A stretch of DNA of 64,000 nt from Bacteroidales bacterium (GTDB taxonomy: Bacteria > Bacteroidota > Bacteroidia > Bacteroidales > UBA10428): positions 8,849 through 72,848 of the forward strand of contig JBGSSF010000033.1 in the NCBI GenBank assembly GCA_041737175.1, read 5' to 3'. The notes below the pieces were generated by a model, which was not told the origin of the DNA, ran no database searches, and saw only the letters and a program-made list of their open reading frames with translations. The number at the start of each line of letters is the position of its first letter. Within the stretch, counting starts at the first letter, position 1. Both the position numbers and the translations under genes were made by a program. Below are positions 3,334 to 33,245 of the stretch, piece by piece.

Positions 3334-3511
3334 GGCGGAGTTACAAACCATAGCCGGCAACTTCAGCTAATTAATACTATTGCAGGACGTTCAGCGAAAT
3401 GATTGTTCTTCAATAGCCCCGGCCTTCAGGCCGGGGATCAAATAGGATTCGTTTATATTTCTGGGGTTTTAACCCCTACCATTTTCCCCGGCCTGAAGGC
3501 CGGGGCTATTG
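3334..3511. repeat. Copy A of a dispersed hairpin-module repeat family
   Basis: 3334-3366 GGCGGAGTTACAAACCATAGCCGGCAACTTCAG matches 27485-27517 and the inverted copy at 27738-27770. An exact 26-nt inverted repeat (CAATAGCCCCGGCCTTCAGGCCGGGG at 3411-3436, reverse complement at 3486-3511) has arms that are each a hairpin. The intervening TATATTTCTGGGGTTTT matches 56662-56676. Confidence 0.7.
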
Positions 3512-24318: not shown

Positions 24319-25677
24319 TTAGTCTTTTACAGTGAATCCCAATCTTTTCAAACCGGTCCTGATTTCCGGGGTTGCCATAAACAGATTCCAGAGCAGGGCA
24401 CTCCGGTAATTCTCGATCATGACCACGATGGGTCCCTGGTCGATGGCCAGGTACCTTTTGGGATACCAGTTCATTTCGATGCTGAATCCATCATAGAATC
24501 CATAAATACCCCAAATGCTGTCTCCCAGCTCATGGTAAAAATGCCGAAGCGCTTTCATGGATTCTTCGGGTGTATAGGGAAAGGATGATAAGGCAGCCGA
24601 AGGGGTGATCACCCCAAGGTCATTTTTCTCTCCCGGTGCATGGGCAGCATAACCCATGGGGGAATAACCTGCGGTGAGACCCCAGCAGGAATCGCTGTAG
24701 CCGGCATGACCCAGGGTATTCTCTTTGCACCATTGCCAGTTGATAAGTGCCAGGTTTCGGTTCAGTTCGATGTAATCGGCGTATCTGTCACTGATCTTCC
24801 AGGGATCCAGTCCCAGGTAGGAGTAATGCGCCCAGAACAACGGTCCGCCGTATTCCTCCGCATAGTTGTATTTAAGGATCAGGGGATGACCATACATTTG
24901 ATTCGTAGAAATCATTCCTCCGCTACGTGCCCATCCTTCGTGATAGGCAGCCGGATCAACGGGATGTGTAGGTGAAGATGCCGCCAGAACATAGGTGATC
25001 AGGCACTCATTGTAACCTTCAATGGGGAAGTTCATTTCCCAGCCGTAGTTGGGGGACCAGTGCCAGTATATTACAGGCTTGCCGCCCTGGGTGAACCAGT
25101 TCCATTCGACCTCCCGCCAAAGCCTGTCAATTTTGCCGGCCAGCGTCTTTTCCGCTTCAGTGCCGCTTTTAAGATATTCACGTACGGTCAGCAATCCCTG
25201 GATTAGGTAAGCTGTTTCAACGATATCGGCACCATTGTCTTTTGGACTGAAAGGTTTGACGCGTCCGGTTTCTCCGTAGAGCCAATGCGGCCAGGCCCCA
25301 TGAAACCTGTCGGATGTTTCCAGAAAATCCACAATACGTTTCAGGCGCTTATAAGCTTCCTGCCGGGTAATAAATCCCCGTTCAATTCCAACCAGGATTG
25401 CCATCAGGCCAAAACCCGTGCCCCCCGTGGTTACTACATTCATATCATTTTCGGGATATACGCCATCGACATGATAGCGCTCACGGGCCATACCCGAATT
25501 GGATTCTGCGCCGTCCCAGAAATACTGAAAGGTCCGGTATTCGGTAAGTGTAAGCAGCGAATCATCGGTTATTCTGGTTTCGACTTTATCGTAAACTGCT
25601 ACGGATATGTTCCTTGTAGTTTTGCAGCTACTCCAGAGCAATCCGGTTAGCAGAAACAGTATCAGAATTTTTTTCAT
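24319..25677 (-). CDS. GH144-like 'putative glucoamylase' family (alpha/alpha)6 glycoside hydrolase, lipoprotein
   Basis: Lipobox LWSSC. Motif string FQYFW...SGMARER...TTGGTGFGLMAILVGIERGFITRQEA...FHGAWPHWLYGETG...DIVETAYLIQGLL, as in Bacteroides 'putative glucoamylase' proteins related to endo-beta-1,2-glucanases. The family call is by recollection of motifs, not by search. Confidence 0.65.
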   Translation of the reverse strand: MKKILILFLLTGLLWSSCKTTRNISVAVYDKVETRITDDSLLTLTEYRTFQYFWDGAESNSGMARERYHVDGVYPENDMNVVTTGGTGFGLMAILVGIERGFITRQEAYKRLKRIVDFLETSDRFHGAWPHWLYGETGRVKPFSPKDNGADIVETAYLIQGLLTVREYLKSGTEAEKTLAGKIDRLWREVEWNWFTQGGKPVIYWHWSPNYGWEMNFPIEGYNECLITYVLAASSPTHPVDPAAYHEGWARSGGMISTNQMYGHPLILKYNYAEEYGGPLFWAHYSYLGLDPWKISDRYADYIELNRNLALINWQWCKENTLGHAGYSDSCWGLTAGYSPMGYAAHAPGEKNDLGVITPSAALSSFPYTPEESMKALRHFYHELGDSIWGIYGFYDGFSIEMNWYPKRYLAIDQGPIVVMIENYRSALLWNLFMATPEIRTGLKRLGFTVKD

Positions 25678-25682
25678 GGCGC

Positions 25683-27326
25683 TTAATAAGTGAATCCAAG
25701 TTTAGTCAATCCGGCCCTGATATCTTCGTCTGTCATAAATAGGTCCCAAAGGAGACCGGTGCGGTAATTTTCTATCATGCAAACGATAGGCCCCTGGTCA
25801 ATGGCCAGGTAGGAAGAAGCAAACCATGGCTCTTCAAGACTGAAAGCATCGTAGAACCCATAATCGCCCCATAGCCTGTCCCCCAGGATGTAATAAAAGA
25901 ACTTCAAAGCATCCATGCTTTCATCCGGTGTGTAAGGGAGTGAGGAAACTGCAGCGGTAGGTGCAATGACACCCAGGTCGTTTGTGGGTGAACTGGCACT
26001 GTAACCGCCGGGGATGTCACTGGCTGTAAGTCCCCAGCAATCAGATCCGTACCCTGTGTAATGCTTTGGATTTGCCTTGCAGTATTCAAAATTGATCCGG
26101 GAATGCGCGGTAAGCTGTGTCCAATAATTGGTGTACTGGTCTCCCAGTTCTCTGGGATCCAGTGCCAGGAATGAATAATGCGCAAAAAAGAGGGGACCTC
26201 CGTAATCGTACCCGAGTGGTAGCAGGATGTTATAAAATGTCTTGTTGTTCATGAAGCCGCCGTTGCGGGTCCATCCTGCATCATACACCTCTTTGGTTAT
26301 TGTGTGCGTAGGGGATGAGGCAGCCAGAACGTATACCATGAGCGCTTCATTCCAGCCCGTGACAGGCATATTCATTTGCCAGGCGTAATTGGGAGACCAG
26401 TGCCAGTACAAACGGTTCTGATCACCGTTCCTGTACCAGTCCCATTCCACACCCTCCCAGATTTTGGTAATGGAATCGCAGAGGGCATTCTCGACAGTTG
26501 ATCCGTTGATAAAATAGGCTTTTACAGTAAGCAATCCCTGTAAAAGGAATGCCGTTTCAACAAGGTCCCCGCCATCATCTTTGGAACTAAACGGGTGTAC
26601 CTTTCCGGTAGTGCCATTCAGCCAGTGTGGAAAGGCACCGTGGAACCTGTCTGTGGACGGATCAATCAGAAAGTTGACGATGGTCTTCAATCTGTCAAAT
26701 CCCTCCTGACGGGTGATGAAGCCTCTTTCGATGCCAGTAATGATGGCCATCAATCCAAATCCACTACCTCCTGAAGTGACAATATCACCCGAACCGAATC
26801 GTTCACGGGCCAGTCCCGAAACCGGGTGACCGTATTCCCAGAAGTAATCGAAGGTTTTCCGTTGCACCAGCGTAAGCAGAGAATCTTCGGTAATGGCAGG
26901 GAACTTGGGTGTCTCATCGAGACGGGTAACAAATACAAAGGAATAGCTTTTATAAATGGTTCCTCCCAGGGTCGGACCCTGGTCAAAGAGAACCCGGTAG
27001 GTTGATAATCCTTCCAGCGGGTCAGAAAGTGTAATGATCAGGGTTTGACTGTCATCCCTGAACCGGTGGTTGTAACTGGTGTCAACACCCCCTGTAATGA
27101 ACAATTTGTCTTTGCTGAATTGCAGGGTGTCTACCCGGGAATGGAACTTCACCCGGATCTCAACGCTGAGATAATCTATATTTTCAATACTGCCATTGTT
27201 GGTAACATAAACATTGTTTATGTAAAGTGAATCTATGAGGATCTCGCCATCCCCGGTGCTTTCCGGATCTTTATTGCAGGCGAAAATGAAAAATATTAAC
27301 GGTAATAAAAGAAGGGCTTTTTTCAC
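25683..27326 (-). CDS. GH144-like 'putative glucoamylase' family glycoside hydrolase with an extra N-terminal beta-sandwich-like domain, lipoprotein
   Basis: GTG start (no in-frame ATG nearby) giving MKKALLLLPLIFFIFAC (lipobox). A ~140-aa N-terminal extension precedes the same motif string as its neighbour (FDYFW...SGLARER...TSGGSGFGLMAIITGIERGFITRQEG...FHGAFPHWLNGTTG...DLVETAFLLQGLL). Confidence 0.65.
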   Translation of the reverse strand: MKKALLLLPLIFFIFACNKDPESTGDGEILIDSLYINNVYVTNNGSIENIDYLSVEIRVKFHSRVDTLQFSKDKLFITGGVDTSYNHRFRDDSQTLIITLSDPLEGLSTYRVLFDQGPTLGGTIYKSYSFVFVTRLDETPKFPAITEDSLLTLVQRKTFDYFWEYGHPVSGLARERFGSGDIVTSGGSGFGLMAIITGIERGFITRQEGFDRLKTIVNFLIDPSTDRFHGAFPHWLNGTTGKVHPFSSKDDGGDLVETAFLLQGLLTVKAYFINGSTVENALCDSITKIWEGVEWDWYRNGDQNRLYWHWSPNYAWQMNMPVTGWNEALMVYVLAASSPTHTITKEVYDAGWTRNGGFMNNKTFYNILLPLGYDYGGPLFFAHYSFLALDPRELGDQYTNYWTQLTAHSRINFEYCKANPKHYTGYGSDCWGLTASDIPGGYSASSPTNDLGVIAPTAAVSSLPYTPDESMDALKFFYYILGDRLWGDYGFYDAFSLEEPWFASSYLAIDQGPIVCMIENYRTGLLWDLFMTDEDIRAGLTKLGFTY

Positions 27327-27396
27327 TTGAATAATTATTTCAGGTAATTTAACAGGTCGCAGCTACGCCGCTTTATCTCTAGCCATTATCGTTTAT

Positions 27397-27455
27397 CTAC
27401 AAACAGGTCAGCCCCAAGGGCTTCCGGCAGCGCCGGAAATGCGACCTGTTTGTAG
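27397..27455 (-). other. Predicted three-way-junction RNA or DNA structure in the leader of the GH144-like genes
   Basis: A 13-bp outer stem (CTACAAACAGGTC 27397-27409 with GACCTGTTTGTAG 27443-27455) encloses two perfect hairpins, AGCCC-CAA-GGGCT and TCCGGC-AGC-GCCGGA. A third copy of the stem strand (AACAGGTCGC, 27351-27360) offers a mutually exclusive pairing 25 nt from the start codon at 27326. Confidence 0.5.
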
Positions 27456-27482
27456 TATATACTTTTTAAAGTATTCTTAAGC

Positions 27483-27772
27483 TCGGCGGAGTTTAAAACC
27501 ATAGCCGTCAACTTTAGATCAAACCGCGTTAGCGGTTAAATGTGAATAGCGCCGGGCGGAGCCCGGTGTAATTGACATTGATGTTTTCTACAACCACGTA
27601 GTGGTTGAATTTAATTGGAATAGCTCTCTCCTGCAATATTCAACCACGCCGTGGTTGTGAAAAATCAACCGCATATATACACCGGGTTATCACCCGGCGC
27701 TATTCAAATTAAAGCACTCCGTGCTTTCTAAAATCGCTTAAGTTGACGGCAATGGTTTTAAAACTCCGCCGA
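27483..27772. mobile_element. MITE-like ~290-bp nested imperfect palindrome (copy B of the hairpin-module family)
   Basis: Terminal inverted repeats: TCGGCGGAGTTTAAAACCATAGCCGTCAACTT at the left end, AAGTTGACGGCAATGGTTTTAAAACTCCGCCGA at the right end. Each ~135-bp arm carries three hairpins in the same order. No ORF and no obvious target-site duplication. Confidence 0.5.
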
Positions 27773-27823: not shown

Positions 27824-28702
27824 TTAGGGATTGATCTGCGTTACTTCGGCTTGGTACAGAGCAGTAATCTCAGCCTGCGACAACGCCTTGTTATAGATCC
27901 TGAATTCGTCCACCATGCCCTGGTAATAGGTCATCCAGCCTTCGGGTGTACCGGCAATCTGCTGGGTCCATGCGCCAAAGTGGATCTTGGTCATATCCTG
28001 TCCGAGCTTGATGGGGCCCAGTGCCGGCTGTGTGCCACCTGCTTCAGGGCCGGCCCACTTGTTCTGTGAGAACACCTTGGTGCCGTTGGCATAGAATTCC
28101 ATGGTGGAAGTAGTTTTATTGTATAAAGCCACCAGGTGGAACCACATGTCATTCACGAATTTCACGCTATTTTTTCTGAGATCCTGCCCTTTCCATTCCG
28201 GAGATTCACTGTCATACAGGTAGAACTTCATATCCACGGAATCTCCTTCAGCCTGGCTCTCCTGCATAAGTGACAGAGCCCCCATGAAAGCATCACCACC
28301 GTTGATTGTAAAGATTTTGGCTGCACCGCTCGTTGTAAGAGGGGTTTTTACCCAGCAGGACATGGTAATTTCATCCAGGGTTTTCAGTGCCGTCCCGGAA
28401 GCGACATCGTATTCAAAGTAAGCTTCGCTTGTACTTCCCTTGTAGGCATTGCCTCTTCTTCCAACTGCCAGGGTTGCGCCACCAACGTCATCACTGAATG
28501 TGATGGTGTTGTTAGAATACTCAACTTCCTCATCAAGCGTTTCAAACGGGAAATAGGCAATCAGGCTGGAAGTTGCAATTGTGTTGGGATCGATCTTTCC
28601 GTCATCACCACCATCATCATCATCATCGGAACAGGAAACCATCACTCCGCCGAGGAGAAGAGTTCCGAACAAGAAACCAAATAAACCGAATTTGTTTTTC
28701 AT
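27824..28702 (-). CDS. LamG/concanavalin-A-like lectin-domain lipoprotein, candidate surface glycan-binding protein
   Basis: Lipobox VMVSC followed by an acidic linker (SDDDDDGGDDG). C-terminal VDEFRIYNKALSQAEI is the Laminin_G_3-type signature. It occupies the position directly after susD that is typical of SGBPs. Confidence 0.7.
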   Translation of the reverse strand: MKNKFGLFGFLFGTLLLGGVMVSCSDDDDDGGDDGKIDPNTIATSSLIAYFPFETLDEEVEYSNNTITFSDDVGGATLAVGRRGNAYKGSTSEAYFEYDVASGTALKTLDEITMSCWVKTPLTTSGAAKIFTINGGDAFMGALSLMQESQAEGDSVDMKFYLYDSESPEWKGQDLRKNSVKFVNDMWFHLVALYNKTTSTMEFYANGTKVFSQNKWAGPEAGGTQPALGPIKLGQDMTKIHFGAWTQQIAGTPEGWMTYYQGMVDEFRIYNKALSQAEITALYQAEVTQINP

Positions 28703-28739: not shown

Positions 28740-30233
28740 TTAATATCCGTTGTTTTGCACAAGATTCGGATTTAATTGTCTTTGGGCAGCAGGTATGGGA
28801 TATACTTCATGTTTGCCGGAAACAAATTTACCGGCCAGGGCAGTTGCTGCCTGTTCGGTCCTGATCAGGTCAAAGAACCTGTCTTCTTCCAGTGCCAGTT
28901 CTGCGCGCCGCTCGTCCCAGATTTGCTGCAGTGTTGCTCCTGAAAGTTCTTCCAGTCCTGCTCTTTCACGCACCAGGTTAATGGCATTGTCGGCGGTCAT
29001 TCCGCTTACAGTGGCAAATCCCGCTCCCCGCGCTTTGGCTTCGGCATACATGAGCAGTACATCGGCATAACGGAGTATCCTCACATTGTGATCGAAGCCG
29101 TATCCGTTGTAATTCCAGTTGTTGTATACCGATGGTGTATATACTTTTCCGTTGTAGACCGGGTTGATGCAAATCGACTTGATACTGTCACCCTCCGGGG
29201 TCATAGTGCCTCTGTAAAGTAATGTTGTTGCAGGTCTTATCACTTCACCTCTTGCCGTGTAGAAATCGATGAGTTTCCGGCTGGGTACGCAGAACCCCCA
29301 ACCCTGCATATTGCTGGGGTAGTTGGCGCGTGGTCCCTGGACATATGCATATTCTATAAAGGTTTGTTCACCAATTGTCTTACCAAGAGTGGAGCTTTGC
29401 AGCTCAAAAATGGATTCTTCGCTGTTTTCGCCATCGATGCTGAAAACTTCGCGAAAGTCTTCGAGCAGATCAAATCTACCCGATGCGATGATCCGATCGG
29501 TCAGAGAGGCTACCGAGTCCCATTCTGCCTGATACAGGTGTGCCTTGGCCTTTAGCGCCATTGCAGTGTATTTCGTGATCCGGCCAGCCCATTCGTTGGT
29601 GTAGCCTGCCGGCAGCACGCGTATGGCATCGCCGAGATCTTTCTCAATAAATTCATAAAGCTGTGCGGTTGAGGCCTGACCCACAGAGGCAAGTTGTTCT
29701 GCGGTCAGCAAGGTATCGATGATGGGTACCCTGCCGAATAAACGGGTCAGGTTGAAATAAGCATAAGCCCGTATTGTTTTCACTTCACCCTGGCATTGCA
29801 GGGCGTAAAGTTTGTCTGTGCTGTTCAGTAAGGTTCGTTCGAACAGGGGCATCTGGTGTATGGCATAATTGGACCCGCTGACTATATTATAATAGGCCAC
29901 CCAAAGATCATTGATAAGACCATTGTCGGCTTCATAGGTAAGATTATCCAGTTCGAGCATGGGTGGATTGTCCTCGGGCGTACTGCCCTTGTCGGCATTA
30001 TCAGATGCGATCTCAAAGGCGCCGATGTAAGGGAATACGTGGGCTCCGTAACTACGGAGGCTGGCATAGGACGCACTGACTGAAAGAAAAATATTCTCAG
30101 ACTTTGAATAATCAATGCCTGTAGTAGGCATGGTGGCTTCCGGGCGAATTTCAAGGAAGTCTTCGCAGCCTGTCAGCAACAACAGGGCTGTTATAACGGG
30201 GATGATACTGATTCTTTTCATTTTCTGACTCAT
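28740..30233 (-). CDS. SusD/RagB-family outer-membrane nutrient-binding lipoprotein
   Basis: Lipobox LLLTGC, conserved RYADVLLMYAEAKA, C-terminal NPNLVQNNGY. Lies 6 nt downstream of a SusC gene. Confidence 0.9.
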   Translation of the reverse strand: MSQKMKRISIIPVITALLLLTGCEDFLEIRPEATMPTTGIDYSKSENIFLSVSASYASLRSYGAHVFPYIGAFEIASDNADKGSTPEDNPPMLELDNLTYEADNGLINDLWVAYYNIVSGSNYAIHQMPLFERTLLNSTDKLYALQCQGEVKTIRAYAYFNLTRLFGRVPIIDTLLTAEQLASVGQASTAQLYEFIEKDLGDAIRVLPAGYTNEWAGRITKYTAMALKAKAHLYQAEWDSVASLTDRIIASGRFDLLEDFREVFSIDGENSEESIFELQSSTLGKTIGEQTFIEYAYVQGPRANYPSNMQGWGFCVPSRKLIDFYTARGEVIRPATTLLYRGTMTPEGDSIKSICINPVYNGKVYTPSVYNNWNYNGYGFDHNVRILRYADVLLMYAEAKARGAGFATVSGMTADNAINLVRERAGLEELSGATLQQIWDERRAELALEEDRFFDLIRTEQAATALAGKFVSGKHEVYPIPAAQRQLNPNLVQNNGY

Positions 30234-30239
30234 AAACTG

Positions 30240-33200
30240 TTAAAAATTAGCTTTGATGCCAACGGTATAAACCGACTGGAGTGGGTATACCGAATTATCA
30301 ATACCGCTTGAAATAGGACTTCCTCCAATCTCAGGCGTAAATCCGTTATAGGTGAAAAAGGTATAAGGCCGTTGAGCAGCGATGTAAATCCTCAGTTGGG
30401 GAATAAACGGTATTTTTGTGGTGGTGAAACCTGCCTGGATATTCTGGATCCGGATATACGATCCGCTTTCGACAAAAAAGTCATTGGCCTGTTGGATGAA
30501 AGAGTAATTATAGGCTGTGGCCGAAGGATACTCATCTGATGGGTTGTCCTTTGTCCAGCGGTTTTCATAAAAATCCTGATCGTAATTGCCATCGGTAAAA
30601 ACGTCCCTGTTCATCCTTTTTGCATTCAGGATCTTGTTTCCCAGCTGTCCCATGAGAGAGATATTCAGGTCGAAGTTTCTATAGGTAATCCCGACATCAA
30701 CACCCGAAATAAGCCATGGTATTGCACTTCCAAGGTATACCTTATCTTCTTCATTGATCACCTGGTCGCCGTTCTGATCTTTATACCTGAAGAATCCTTC
30801 ATTTTTTATGGTCTGATCGATCGGATCGAGCAATGCTTCACTTTCACTTTTGTAAACTCCGGTTATTTCATACCCGTAAAAGGAACCAATGGGATGGCCC
30901 ACAGCGGTACGGGTGGTATAATTTCCTCTCACGTAAGCGCCCGGAATGTAATTTCGGCCATCGAGCCTGGTTACTTCATTGTGGACCGTGGTTGCATTGA
31001 AACCGGCATTCATGGCGATGCCGTTCTTAAATTCCCTGGACCACCTTAAACTGAGTTCAATCCCGGCATTCACAACACTTCCATTGTTGTCGAGCAGCTC
31101 AGCCACTCCTCCACCTGTTGCGATGGGCGCAAAAAACACAACGTTGTTTGTCGTTCTGTGATAAAAGTCGAGATTACCCGATAGCTTATTGCCGGTCAGG
31201 GTAAAGTCAAAACCAACATCGTACTCATTCACCACCTCCCACCGCAGGTAATTCTGAACCACGGTCTGCGCTCCCATTCCGTCTATCAGCTGGTTATTGA
31301 AAATGGCTGAACTTCCGGCTCCGGATTGCCCCAGGATAACCGAGGAATTCGCCGGCACATTGTCGTTGCCAAGCAGGCCCCAACTGGCCCTGGCTTTCAG
31401 ATAACTGAAAATTTTCTGATTTTCCATGAATCTTTCCTGGGTTAGATTCCAACCCAGACCAACAGAAGGGAAATAGCCCCATTTTTCCTGGTATTTTGAA
31501 CTGGCATCTGCCCTGAAGGTCAGGGTGGCCAGGTATTTATCACTGATATTGAATATGCCCCGGGTAAAAAAAGAAAGGCCGTTGTACCTGTCAGCGCCGT
31601 CCCAGGCATAACGATCCCTGAATGAACCCGTGACCAGGTATTTCGACTGATCATCAAGGCCTGAAACATCAATGGCGGAGCCCGACAGATATTCTGATTT
31701 TTCCATACGGGTCGACTGTCCGATCATGATGGAGTAGTTGACTTTACCTGACTGGTCCTTATAAGTAAGGAGGTTGTCGATGATCTGCTTGGATCCGTTG
31801 CCTGAGGTCTTGGACAGGGAAGATTTTCTTACACCCTGTGAACCACCCACGTTGAAAGCTGGCGTATAATTCCGGGTTGTCCAGTTGCTGACATCCTGGT
31901 TGTATGAAATTTTAAAGGTCAGCTTGTCCTTCACCGGATAGAATTCAGCATATCCATTGAATACAAGCTTATTCCCCTTTTCATAGTTGTCGTTGTAATA
32001 AGCTGCAGCTACGGGATTGCCATACTGGTTACCAAAACCATAGGTCTGTGGTGATCCAAACAATACCGGGTAGGCTTCCGTGTTATCGGAATCGTATACA
32101 GGGTAAACGGGCGGATTCACATAAGCATTGAAAAATGCACCCTGATTGGGATTGTACTTATCGTAACGTGAAACAATGGTATTCAGGCCGATTTTTAGGT
32201 ATGCATTAACAGTCTGCTCAAGTCTTCCGCGGATATTGAAGCGGTTAAAATCATTTTGGGTATCCATAATTCCATCCTGGTAAAGGTAACTCCCTCCGAA
32301 TGAATAGGATGTTTTATCAGCAGCGCCTGAAATGTCAATGCTGTGACCACTCATGGGTGCGGGTCTCACCAGTTCCTGGTACCAGTCGGTACTTACCGGA
32401 TAATCGTCAGGGTTTTTGGGAATATAGCCTGTGGCTTCTGCATTGGCTTCATTCATGAGTTCAACGTACTGATTTTTGGAGGCCATTTTCAGAATATTCA
32501 CGGGGATCTGCATACCATAATATCCCTCATAGCTGATGGATGGCTTTTGTTCGATGCCTCTCCTGGTGGTGATCAGTATTACCCCGTTGGCAGCCCGCAC
32601 GCCGTATATGGCTGCTGCTGAAGCATCCTTAAGCACGGTAATGTCTTCAATGTCACCGGCACCGAGGAAATCAATATTGTCAACGAATACGCCGTCAACA
32701 ACATAAAGGGGATTGGCAAAATCGCCAATGGAACCAACACCGCGTATTTTTACGGAAGCCCCGCTGCCCGGAACTCCGCTGGTGATGATCTGCAGACCGG
32801 CTACCTTCCCCTGCAGGGCCTGCATGGCATTGGATGTGATCTGCCGTGAGAGATCCTCGCCCTTTACCGTAACAATGGGTGCGGTAAGGTCCTTGGCTCT
32901 CTGGGTTCCGTAGCCAATTACCACAACTTCATCCATAAGGGTTGCCTGGGTTGCCAGTATGATATCGATCACAGTCTGGTTACCTACAGCAACCTGCTGA
33001 GGTTCCATTCCAACCATGGTGAAAATTAGCGTGTCTACCGGCTGGGCCGATATCGAGAAACTACCGTCACCATCGGTAACCGTACCTCTCAGGGTATTCT
33101 TTACCTGAACTGCAACGCCCGGCAATGATATTTTCTGATCATCCACCACGCGTCCCCTTATTAATACCTGACCGTTCAGCGGTTGCAGAAGAAAAATGAC

Positions 33201-33245
33201 AAATATTGTTGCAAACAGTTCTTTCATGGGTAAGAGATATTTCAT
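30240..33245 (-). CDS. SusC/RagA-family TonB-dependent outer-membrane transporter
   Basis: CarboxypepD_reg-like domain (RGRVVDDQKISLPGVAVQVKNTLRGTVTDGDGSFSI), plug (VVVIGYGTQRAKDLT, ITVLKDASAAAIYGVRAANGVILITTRRG), and a barrel ending ...YTVGIKANF. Confidence 0.92.
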   Translation of the reverse strand: MKYLLPMKELFATIFVIFLLQPLNGQVLIRGRVVDDQKISLPGVAVQVKNTLRGTVTDGDGSFSISAQPVDTLIFTMVGMEPQQVAVGNQTVIDIILATQATLMDEVVVIGYGTQRAKDLTAPIVTVKGEDLSRQITSNAMQALQGKVAGLQIITSGVPGSGASVKIRGVGSIGDFANPLYVVDGVFVDNIDFLGAGDIEDITVLKDASAAAIYGVRAANGVILITTRRGIEQKPSISYEGYYGMQIPVNILKMASKNQYVELMNEANAEATGYIPKNPDDYPVSTDWYQELVRPAPMSGHSIDISGAADKTSYSFGGSYLYQDGIMDTQNDFNRFNIRGRLEQTVNAYLKIGLNTIVSRYDKYNPNQGAFFNAYVNPPVYPVYDSDNTEAYPVLFGSPQTYGFGNQYGNPVAAAYYNDNYEKGNKLVFNGYAEFYPVKDKLTFKISYNQDVSNWTTRNYTPAFNVGGSQGVRKSSLSKTSGNGSKQIIDNLLTYKDQSGKVNYSIMIGQSTRMEKSEYLSGSAIDVSGLDDQSKYLVTGSFRDRYAWDGADRYNGLSFFTRGIFNISDKYLATLTFRADASSKYQEKWGYFPSVGLGWNLTQERFMENQKIFSYLKARASWGLLGNDNVPANSSVILGQSGAGSSAIFNNQLIDGMGAQTVVQNYLRWEVVNEYDVGFDFTLTGNKLSGNLDFYHRTTNNVVFFAPIATGGGVAELLDNNGSVVNAGIELSLRWSREFKNGIAMNAGFNATTVHNEVTRLDGRNYIPGAYVRGNYTTRTAVGHPIGSFYGYEITGVYKSESEALLDPIDQTIKNEGFFRYKDQNGDQVINEEDKVYLGSAIPWLISGVDVGITYRNFDLNISLMGQLGNKILNAKRMNRDVFTDGNYDQDFYENRWTKDNPSDEYPSATAYNYSFIQQANDFFVESGSYIRIQNIQAGFTTTKIPFIPQLRIYIAAQRPYTFFTYNGFTPEIGGSPISSGIDNSVYPLQSVYTVGIKANF

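Follow-up and report, generated by a model that had tools for sequence, protein, structure and literature searches.

A nest of mobile elements forms a 290-bp palindrome within a Bacteroidales sugar-utilisation operon

What is a 290-bp nested palindrome doing inside a sugar-utilisation operon? We addressed this question for positions 27483-27772 of a 64,000-nt stretch of a Bacteroidales genome (hereafter the window; C31:8849-72848 of G000, a genome of 4.32 Mb in 36 contigs, 97.6% complete). A preliminary description of the window had placed the palindrome between a LamG gene and the two GH144-like genes of one operon and had proposed that it could be a non-autonomous mobile element or a structured non-coding RNA. 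The sequence and its placement are as described. The insert is a nest of mobile elements, not a dedicated regulatory RNA of the operon, and it is built of three layers: a short target palindrome, a MITE (a miniature transposable element with inverted repeats) of the IS4/IS231 type, and a doublet of hairpin arms of the kind that flank a Y1 transposase gene. The element is of a known kind, in that MITEs, insertion sequences (ISs) targeting repetitive extragenic palindromes (REPs) and REPtron-like arms have all been described; the three-layer combination is unusual. We hold with high confidence that the palindrome is a 255-bp derivative of an IS4-family element of the IS231 type, resembling a MITE or a mobile insertion cassette (MIC), which is centred in a short palindrome and carries a Y1-arm doublet.

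Three layers of the palindrome

A repeat finder placed the nested inverted arms inside outer repeats at 27492-27517 and 27737-27762 (26 nt, 92% complementary). Folded as RNA, each strand of 27483-27772 gives a single long hairpin (-161.6 and -156.8 kcal/mol; z = -17.4 and -16.3 for the two strands), and none of 100 shuffled sequences folds as well. The element is 75% identical to its own reverse complement, near the ~70% first estimated for the two arms, and all three pairs of hairpins (H1, H2 and H3), reported in the same order in each arm, could be located by coordinate. The layers comprise the following features, given with coordinates, strand where one applies, and supporting comparison in brackets.

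27483..27490, no strand: left half-stem TCGGCGGA of a pre-existing short palindrome, the insertion target (orthologous site of sister species G013)
27491..27499, no strand: left target-site duplication GTTTAAAAC (centre of the G013 empty site, GTTTTAAAC)
27500..27754, no strand: 255-bp MITE, the transposed unit (missing in G013; copies in other short palindromes)
27500..27520, plus strand: left inverted repeat CATAGCCGTCAACTTTAGATC, IS4 family, IS231-subgroup type (published end signature)
27521..27612, plus strand: cargo arm 1 (same part order as the arms around the Y1 gene of G000:C14 and its orthologues)
27522-27537: H1 of arm 1, AACCGC-GTTA-GCGGTT
27543-27550: linker of arm 1, TGAATAGC
27552-27566: H2 of arm 1
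27591-27607: H3 of arm 1, then GAAT
27608..27640, no strand: non-palindromic centre, the position held by the Y1 gene in the gene-bearing copy
27636..27733, minus strand: cargo arm 2
27641-27657: H3 of arm 2
27682-27697: H2 of arm 2
27711-27727: H1 of arm 2, AAAGCAC-TCC-GTGCTTT on the plus strand and AAAGCAC-GGA-GTGCTTT on the minus strand
27734..27754, minus strand: right inverted repeat (reverse complement CATTGCCGTCAACTTAAGCGA)
27755..27764, no strand: right target-site duplication GTTTTAAAAC (comparison with G013)
27765..27772, no strand: right half-stem TCCGCCGA of the target palindrome (comparison with G013)

The evidence for insertion comes from the sister species. In G013, the LamG orthologue is 97% identical, the flanks of the site align at 92% on both sides, and the orthologous spot is an uninterrupted palindrome, TCGGCGGAGTTTTAAACTCCGCCGA, in the context ...AAGCTCGGCGGAGTTTTAAACTCCGCCGAACAAAAACTGACTG.... 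This empty site reads TCGGCGGA-GTTTTAAAC-TCCGCCGA, whereas the window has GTTTAAAAC and GTTTTAAAAC on either side of the insert, amounting to 255 extra bases and a second copy of the palindrome centre. The empty site thus establishes the palindrome as a true insertion, as had been proposed. It also divides what had been described as 33-nt terminal inverted repeats: from CATAGCC inward the sequence is indeed an inverted repeat, and the remainder consists of ~8 nt of target half-stem and 9 nt of target duplication.

The outer ~17 nt on each side represent an interrupted member of a family of short palindromes, GCGNAGTT-loop-AACTNCGC (also written GGCGGAGTT-loop-AACTCCGCC). At least 47 intact copies of the form GCG[GTA]AGTT-loop-AACTNCGC are present in G000, and the one at C18:65235 mimics an empty site almost perfectly. 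Of the 16 true MITE ends in G000, 13 adjoin a half of this palindrome that can still be recognised. In the other copies examined, each duplication equals that copy's own palindrome centre (GTTACAAA, GTTAAGAAAAC, GTTTCTGTAAC, GTTTTGTTAAC and GTTTTCAAC); a GTT-loop-AAC centre of 9 or 11 bp stands on both sides of each copy, and its sequence varies between copies. The copy-specific GTT-loop-AAC on both sides is the mark of a genuine target-site duplication; transposition by HUH/Y1 enzymes makes none. The border between duplication and inverted repeat is ambiguous (2-5 nt vs 9-11 nt), since the target stem GTT/AAC resembles the tip of the repeat; we read the duplication as 9 or 11 bp because the published IS231 end signature begins at CAT. 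As the duplication is always GTT-loop-AAC, with its length set by that of the loop, the transposase probably reads the half-sites GCGNA|GTT and makes symmetric cuts on both strands.

The short target palindromes are themselves often paired, ~56 bp apart, within ~110-bp units bounded by TTGTATCAAAAG / CTTTTGATACAA (for example, C9:60912-60990, C27:198943-199020 and C7:107732-107810 in G000). These units look like a further MITE or REPIN-like family (REPIN, a REP doublet forming a hairpin), and their stems hold GTAG/CTAC (a "double foot"). Among the seven matches to PF01797 in G000, no Y1 gene is flanked by the short target palindrome.

The ends of the transposed unit point to its enzyme. The IS231 subgroup is published as having ends of the form CAT-------AA--TAA--- and 10-12-bp direct repeats (PMC2266710, Table 1), and the window MITE, with ~21 nt of inverted repeat at both ends, matches this signature exactly. 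The same ends bound full-length elements in the congener G015. The first, IS-B (L066:418-2002, 1.6 kb), carries the end motif CCATAGCCGTCAACTTAAG without mismatch at either end; the window's left inverted repeat is identical to the IS-B ends at 18 of 19 bases, and its left repeat CATAGCCGTCAACTTTAG and right repeat CATTGCCGTCAACTTAAG match CATAGCCGTCAACTTAAG at both IS-B ends. IS-B encodes a 439-aa transposase assigned to the IS4 family by a family-level test (NF033592, 184 bits vs a cut-off of 115) and is inserted at GGCGTAGTTATGAAAACTACGCC; its duplication measures 11 bp and lies within a short palindrome. The second, IS-A, encodes a 411-aa IS4 transposase, is present in 10 identical copies and has slightly different ends; the four copies examined, which face either way, occupy GCCC..GGGC hairpins that belong to MITEs and have the 9-bp duplication CCTGTCAGG. 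Both transposases carry the motif Y-2-R-3-E-6-K, as read from their sequences. IS-A stands at loci L063, L064, L065 and L067 of G015, and some MITE-plus-IS composites share a spacing of 1868 bp at several loci.

The MITE end motif is present in 29 of 77 genomes of the family. There are ~16 true MITE ends in G000, and the 255-bp unit has no transposase gene of its own; an IS231-like DDE transposase acting in trans would bind its inverted repeats and move it by cut-and-paste.

Cargo arms and the Y1 transposase gene

What the MITE carries is a gene-less pair of inverted three-hairpin arms, not the remnant of an IS, and identical arms flank a Y1 gene elsewhere in the genome. At G000:C14:20853-21490, a 148-aa open reading frame (ORF) separates two such arms, replacing the ~33-nt centre between H3 and H3'; this centre varies from sub-family to sub-family. 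A search for an IS200-like or REP-associated tyrosine transposase (RAYT) gene with matching ends, suggested at the outset, was thus successful (G000:C14:20954-21397). The ORF matches Y1_Tnp of Pfam (PF01797, E = 7e-19), scores 52 bits against the NCBIfam IS200 model (cut-off 55) and 17 bits against REP_Tyr_transpos (cut-off 80), and has ISHp608 TnpA as its best solved relative, to which the HUH and catalytic Tyr regions align. Its 148 aa, with GWQ and YVKNQEGHH, fit TnpAY1 subclass 1.2 in a motif-level test, and the Y---NP motif of class 2 RAYTs is not found in it. GGAG/GTAG occurs in the H1 and H3 loops, and the arms have no GT[AG]G foot. In G000, the Y1 gene does not have the outer repeats on its flanks. 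A genome-wide search placed no Y1 gene on the window's contig, with not every ORF of the window screened.

The association between gene and arms extends to relatives. Y1 orthologues with the same flanking arms are present in G005 (81% identity), G008 (80%) and G017 (78%, with an internal stop), and G018 has two copies (67-68%), again with these arms. In homologues at 45-65% identity (G002, G012, G032 and G033) and in the C7 paralogue of G000, the order of parts is kept and the stems differ: H1 with a GNA triloop comes first, then the linker (A/T)AAnnTGAATA(G/A)C, a GC-rich H2, ~25 variable nt, C-H3-G, AAT and the gene. G000 holds five full-length, diverged Y1 paralogues (35-47% identity), all with Y---Q--HH and each with its own flanking hairpins, and its dispersed hairpins number 35 of the C14 type, 26 of the C7 type and 57 of the C5b type. 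Genomes of the genus with close Y1 orthologues tend also to hold many arm copies (Fisher p = 0.012). The cassette is not syntenic, as its SOD and KdtA neighbours are missing at the orthologous loci of 11 relatives.

Further Y1 genes of G000 drew our attention. The C7 paralogue (C7:127655-128098) contains an in-frame TAG, yet 26 cognate H2-type hairpins are dispersed in the genome. At C35:81427-81987 lies a 186-aa class-2 RAYT-like Y1 gene (NHMH, YIHNNP) flanked by palindromes of its own, CGACTTAGGC..GCCTAAGTCG. The arms of the paralogue at C5:5501 (L035:1975-2018 and 1157-1201) match RF01687, Acido-Lenti-1, at 30.6 and 22.9 bits, below the gathering score of 37. As these sub-threshold matches are confined to the arms of that paralogue, an Acido-Lenti-1 identity does not apply to the palindrome.

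The preliminary description had emphasised that stem pairing, rather than stem sequence, is kept between the arms. An alignment of 25 arms bears this out. Over 19 pairs (475 cells; 500 shuffles), 93.3% of cells pair, vs 78.8% in shuffles and 31-43% with slid partners, and 14 of the 19 pairs have changed on both sides, vs 6.6 ± 1.4 in shuffles (0/500 reach this value). The unpaired cells of helix 1 are mostly 4-nt loops set out of register by MAFFT. The specific difference in H1 (AAGCAC vs AACCGC) did not arise within the window copy: the gene-bearing C14 copy has the same left/right difference, which is therefore inherited and did not evolve in place. Stem pairs are nearly all Watson-Crick, with very few G-U among the 475 cells, which is what one expects of palindromes that are read as DNA on either strand. 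The inferred selection on structure stands as far as the retention of pairing is concerned; Watson-Crick stems in copies at unrelated intergenic spots are best read as DNA hairpins recognised by a transposase, not as a sign of RNA function. The hairpins would be single-stranded recognition sites of the Y1 enzyme, and their co-evolution with it would explain the compensatory changes.

The family is multi-copy in its own genome, in agreement with a non-autonomous mobile element. We found 22 matching loci in G000, ~17 of them complete doublets of the form H1-H2-H3 | centre | H3'-H2'-H1'. The closest copies between transposon ends are 95.6% (C9:63943), 93.5% (C16:33882) and 91.8% (C25, half) identical to the window copy, and those at C9:63943 and C16:33882 occupy different short palindromes and have different duplications. 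The 16 copies examined all lie between genes, and most stand directly after the 3' end of a gene because target palindromes lie there. Four doublets lack the outer repeats (C1:50651, C2:51842, C22:68807 and C27:68986), with no conserved target motif seen 5' of them, and single arms exist at C2:9211 and C4:31158. Arm haplotypes are shuffled among copies, including between those with and without IS4 ends, which together with the single arms indicates that the arm behaves as a module. Since copies without IS4 ends exist, the arms may spread alone as well as inside such ends. Insertions of 19-21 nt were observed exactly in the hairpin loops or stems of arms at C25:~84700, C27:127690-127720 and C4:31240; TTGAAAATCAGCGAAGCTA lies within the H2 loop of two arm copies and CCTGCCTGCCGGCGAGGCAGG within H3 of another.

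Other cargos lie between the same ends, such as the C5b-type hairpins at C7:12621 and C20:7510. A related case is found in the window itself, at 3334-3511, where a single arm-like copy had been reported. Its first ~33 nt are indeed shared (27 of 30 bases of the searched pattern), and the remainder is not arm-like: after the left inverted repeat comes a different cargo, of the CCCCGGCC-TTCA-GGCCGGGG type, and there is no right end.

3334..3366, plus strand: truncated second MITE, comprising half a short palindrome and the left inverted repeat

Hairpins of the type found there, CAATAGCC-CCGGCCTTCAGGCCGG, number seven in the genome.

The operon and the rival explanations

The genes around the palindrome all lie on the minus strand, in the order SusC-like, SusD-like, Laminin_G_3 and two PF10091 genes.

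30240-33245, minus strand: SusC-like gene
28740-30233, minus strand: SusD-like gene
27824-28702, minus strand: gene of a Laminin_G_3 (LamG-like) protein
25683-27326, minus strand: PF10091 (GH144-type) gene
24319-25677, minus strand: PF10091 (GH144-type) gene

The palindrome lies 52 nt past the stop codon of the LamG-like gene. A second inserted element, at 27345-27460, lies directly upstream of the GTG start of a GH144-type gene. It has the inverted repeats CTACAAACAGGTC/GACCTGTTTGTAG, is missing from the orthologous spacer of G013 and has relatives at C5:42540, C5:43358, C7:21518 and C18:103228 of G000; its multi-copy and lineage-specific nature argues for another small mobile repeat.

This context raises the possibility that the palindrome is, or has become, a structured RNA device of the polysaccharide utilisation locus, which as an attenuator, a processing site or a stabiliser would fix how much susCD-LamG transcript there is relative to GH144 transcript. 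It stands between genes of like direction, and its RNA, if made, would fold into a very stable hairpin. The stability and processing of mRNA are known to be influenced by REPs, bacterial interspersed mosaic elements (BIMEs) and MITEs, Correia elements among them (reviews: PMC3184786, PMC3733652). We nevertheless regard such a device as most improbable. The sister species G013 has the same operon without the element, ~16 other copies stand in unrelated intergenic contexts, the stems hold very few G-U pairs, and its location after a gene end follows from how the target repeat is distributed. Rfam searches with the region and with the element alone returned chance microRNA-like matches only, and neither an intrinsic terminator nor a sigma-70 promoter was predicted on the transcribed strand, by a tool that does not model Bacteroidetes promoters. 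The near-palindrome recurs in many contexts, and we found neither a curated RNA-family match, nor G-U-tolerant covariation, nor an orientation tied to transcription; the earlier suggestion of a structured non-coding RNA is thus not upheld. An effect on the operon transcript, for example through RNase III cutting a ~120-bp RNA hairpin, is possible and would be incidental.

A different mobile origin would do without a DDE enzyme, with the whole 290-bp palindrome being of the REPIN/BIME type and copied by a RAYT-like Y1 transposase only. The inner arms do flank a Y1 gene, four doublets lack outer repeats, and the search of G000 for relatives of the IS-A and IS-B transposases found no IS4 transposase. 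This explanation is very unlikely: Y1/HUH enzymes would not make the copy-specific 9/11-bp duplications, the outer repeats are not around the Y1 gene in G000, and the same repeats, whose ends match the IS231 signature, also delimit two IS4 elements with transposase genes and enclose no fewer than three unrelated cargos. An IS231-type MITE therefore remains our reading of the element, and an alternative can be raised for the origin of its cargo only. IS4 ends may have taken up a Y1-arm doublet passively, in the manner of MIC231, or two flanking ISs may have lost their interiors. Cassettes of the MIC231 type, consisting of IS231 ends and foreign passenger DNA, are documented (references in PMC2266710), no arms were seen inside the IS-B ends, and cargo-free end-to-end palindromes are rare. 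However, three Y1-arm families lie between the same ends as complete doublets with a spacer of only 4-9 nt, which would demand repeated precise captures, and we consider passive capture possible and on balance rather doubtful. The converse route, in which arm doublets inserted into an end-to-end palindrome, is unsupported: no cargo-free form of the MITE was found in G000, and the 77 genomes yielded only four weak, differently placed cargo-free palindromes.

Several observations weigh against an IS231-type MITE with a Y1-arm cargo. A genome-wide search found no relatives of the IS-A and IS-B transposases in G000, and they are lacking in 33 of the 34 other genus genomes searched; one of these genomes, G023, holds only a decayed fragment with stop codons. 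With none in its own genome, the partner IS is inferred from one congener. IS copies often drop out of metagenome bins, a circumstance that we count as an excuse and not as evidence. In addition, the window's two duplication copies differ by one T, a duplication of 9/11 bp is slightly under the length published for the IS231 subgroup, overlapping that range only in part, and the cargo-free palindromes from which Y1 arms might have come to lie between IS4 ends number four, all of them weak and differently placed.

Relation to known systems

The MITE layer most closely resembles IS231/MIC231 (De Palmenaer, Siguier & Mahillon 2008, PMC2266710). Both have ends with CAT, AA at 11-12 and TAA at 15-17, a duplication of about one helical turn and a palindromic target, and both include gene-less units with foreign DNA inside IS ends and a transposase acting in trans; the Y-2-R-3-E-6-K motif is shared by the transposases of the related full-length elements, IS-A and IS-B. 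They differ in host (Bacteroidales here vs the Bacillus cereus group), in duplication (9/11 bp vs 10-12 bp), in the target, here a dispersed short palindrome, and in the passenger, here non-coding Y1 hairpin arms and not a gene, with no partner IS in G000. In its choice of site, the element is similar to ISs that target REPs (ISRm22, IS1397/ISKpn1; Tobes & Pareja 2006, PMC1525189): insertion into REPs at the palindrome axis is documented, including for the IS4-family ISRm22 of Sinorhizobium meliloti (PMC1525189), and in both cases a dispersed extragenic palindrome is entered at its symmetry axis with a short direct repeat. The unit described here is, by contrast, mostly a non-autonomous MITE, and its duplication tracks the target loop (9 or 11 bp).

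The inner layer recalls the REPIN-RAYT or REPtron systems (Nunvar 2010, PMC2817692; Bertels & Rainey 2011, PMC3116915; Ton-Hoang 2012, PMC3333891), in which inverted hairpin pairs are likewise dispersed between genes, the same repeats flank a low-copy Y1 gene, and each Y1 paralogue has its own hairpin family. However, the Y1 enzyme here is of the IS200-like class 1 (Y---Q--HH) and not of class 2 (Y---NP), the arm is a ~90-nt three-hairpin unit with conserved linkers in place of a lone REP bearing a GT[AG]G foot, copies number in the tens and not the hundreds, and the Y1 cassette is not syntenic between species. Members of TnpAY1 subclass 1.2 have a median length of 148 aa, WQ, Y---Q--HH, a specific C-terminal tail, low copy number and Bacteroidetes or Cyanobacteria hosts (PMC6006769). 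The C14 protein agrees at each point compared (148 aa, WQ, YVKNQEGHH, low copy, a Bacteroidetes host), with paralogues ~35-47% identical; its HuH motif is DHLH, vs DH[IV]H in PMC6006769. According to Quentin, Siguier, Chandler & Fichant 2018 (PMC6006769), the subclass lacks REPs and, in general, secondary structures at its termini, whereas each G000 paralogue examined has hairpin arms on both flanks, and copies of several arm families are scattered through the genome.

This difference suggests a broader proposal, to which we would give an even chance of being right: that TnpAY1 subclass 1.2, an IS200-like clade published with no known DNA partner, has cognate DNA in the form of ~90-nt, covarying three-hairpin arms, which are repeatedly packaged in hairpin-targeting, IS231-like ends. 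The arms, with linkers ..TGAATAGC.. and ..GTTGAAT, would flank the gene and multiply as gene-less inverted doublets. If so, single-strand HUH transposition and double-strand DDE transposition would be coupled through DNA hairpins.

For the operon, the insertion matters little: it is lineage-specific selfish DNA, and the sister species keeps the gene cluster without it. Annotating palindromes of this kind as riboswitches or small RNAs would be a mistake. For the biology of mobile elements, the locus offers a clear example, supported by an empty site, of an IS231-type MITE landing in a dispersed palindrome, with a duplication whose length tracks the target loop, and it shows Y1 hairpin modules carried within DDE transposon ends. 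It also provides evidence that a Y1 subclass described as REP-less owns co-evolving hairpin modules, and this link between subclass 1.2 and hairpin arms is the part most worth pursuing.

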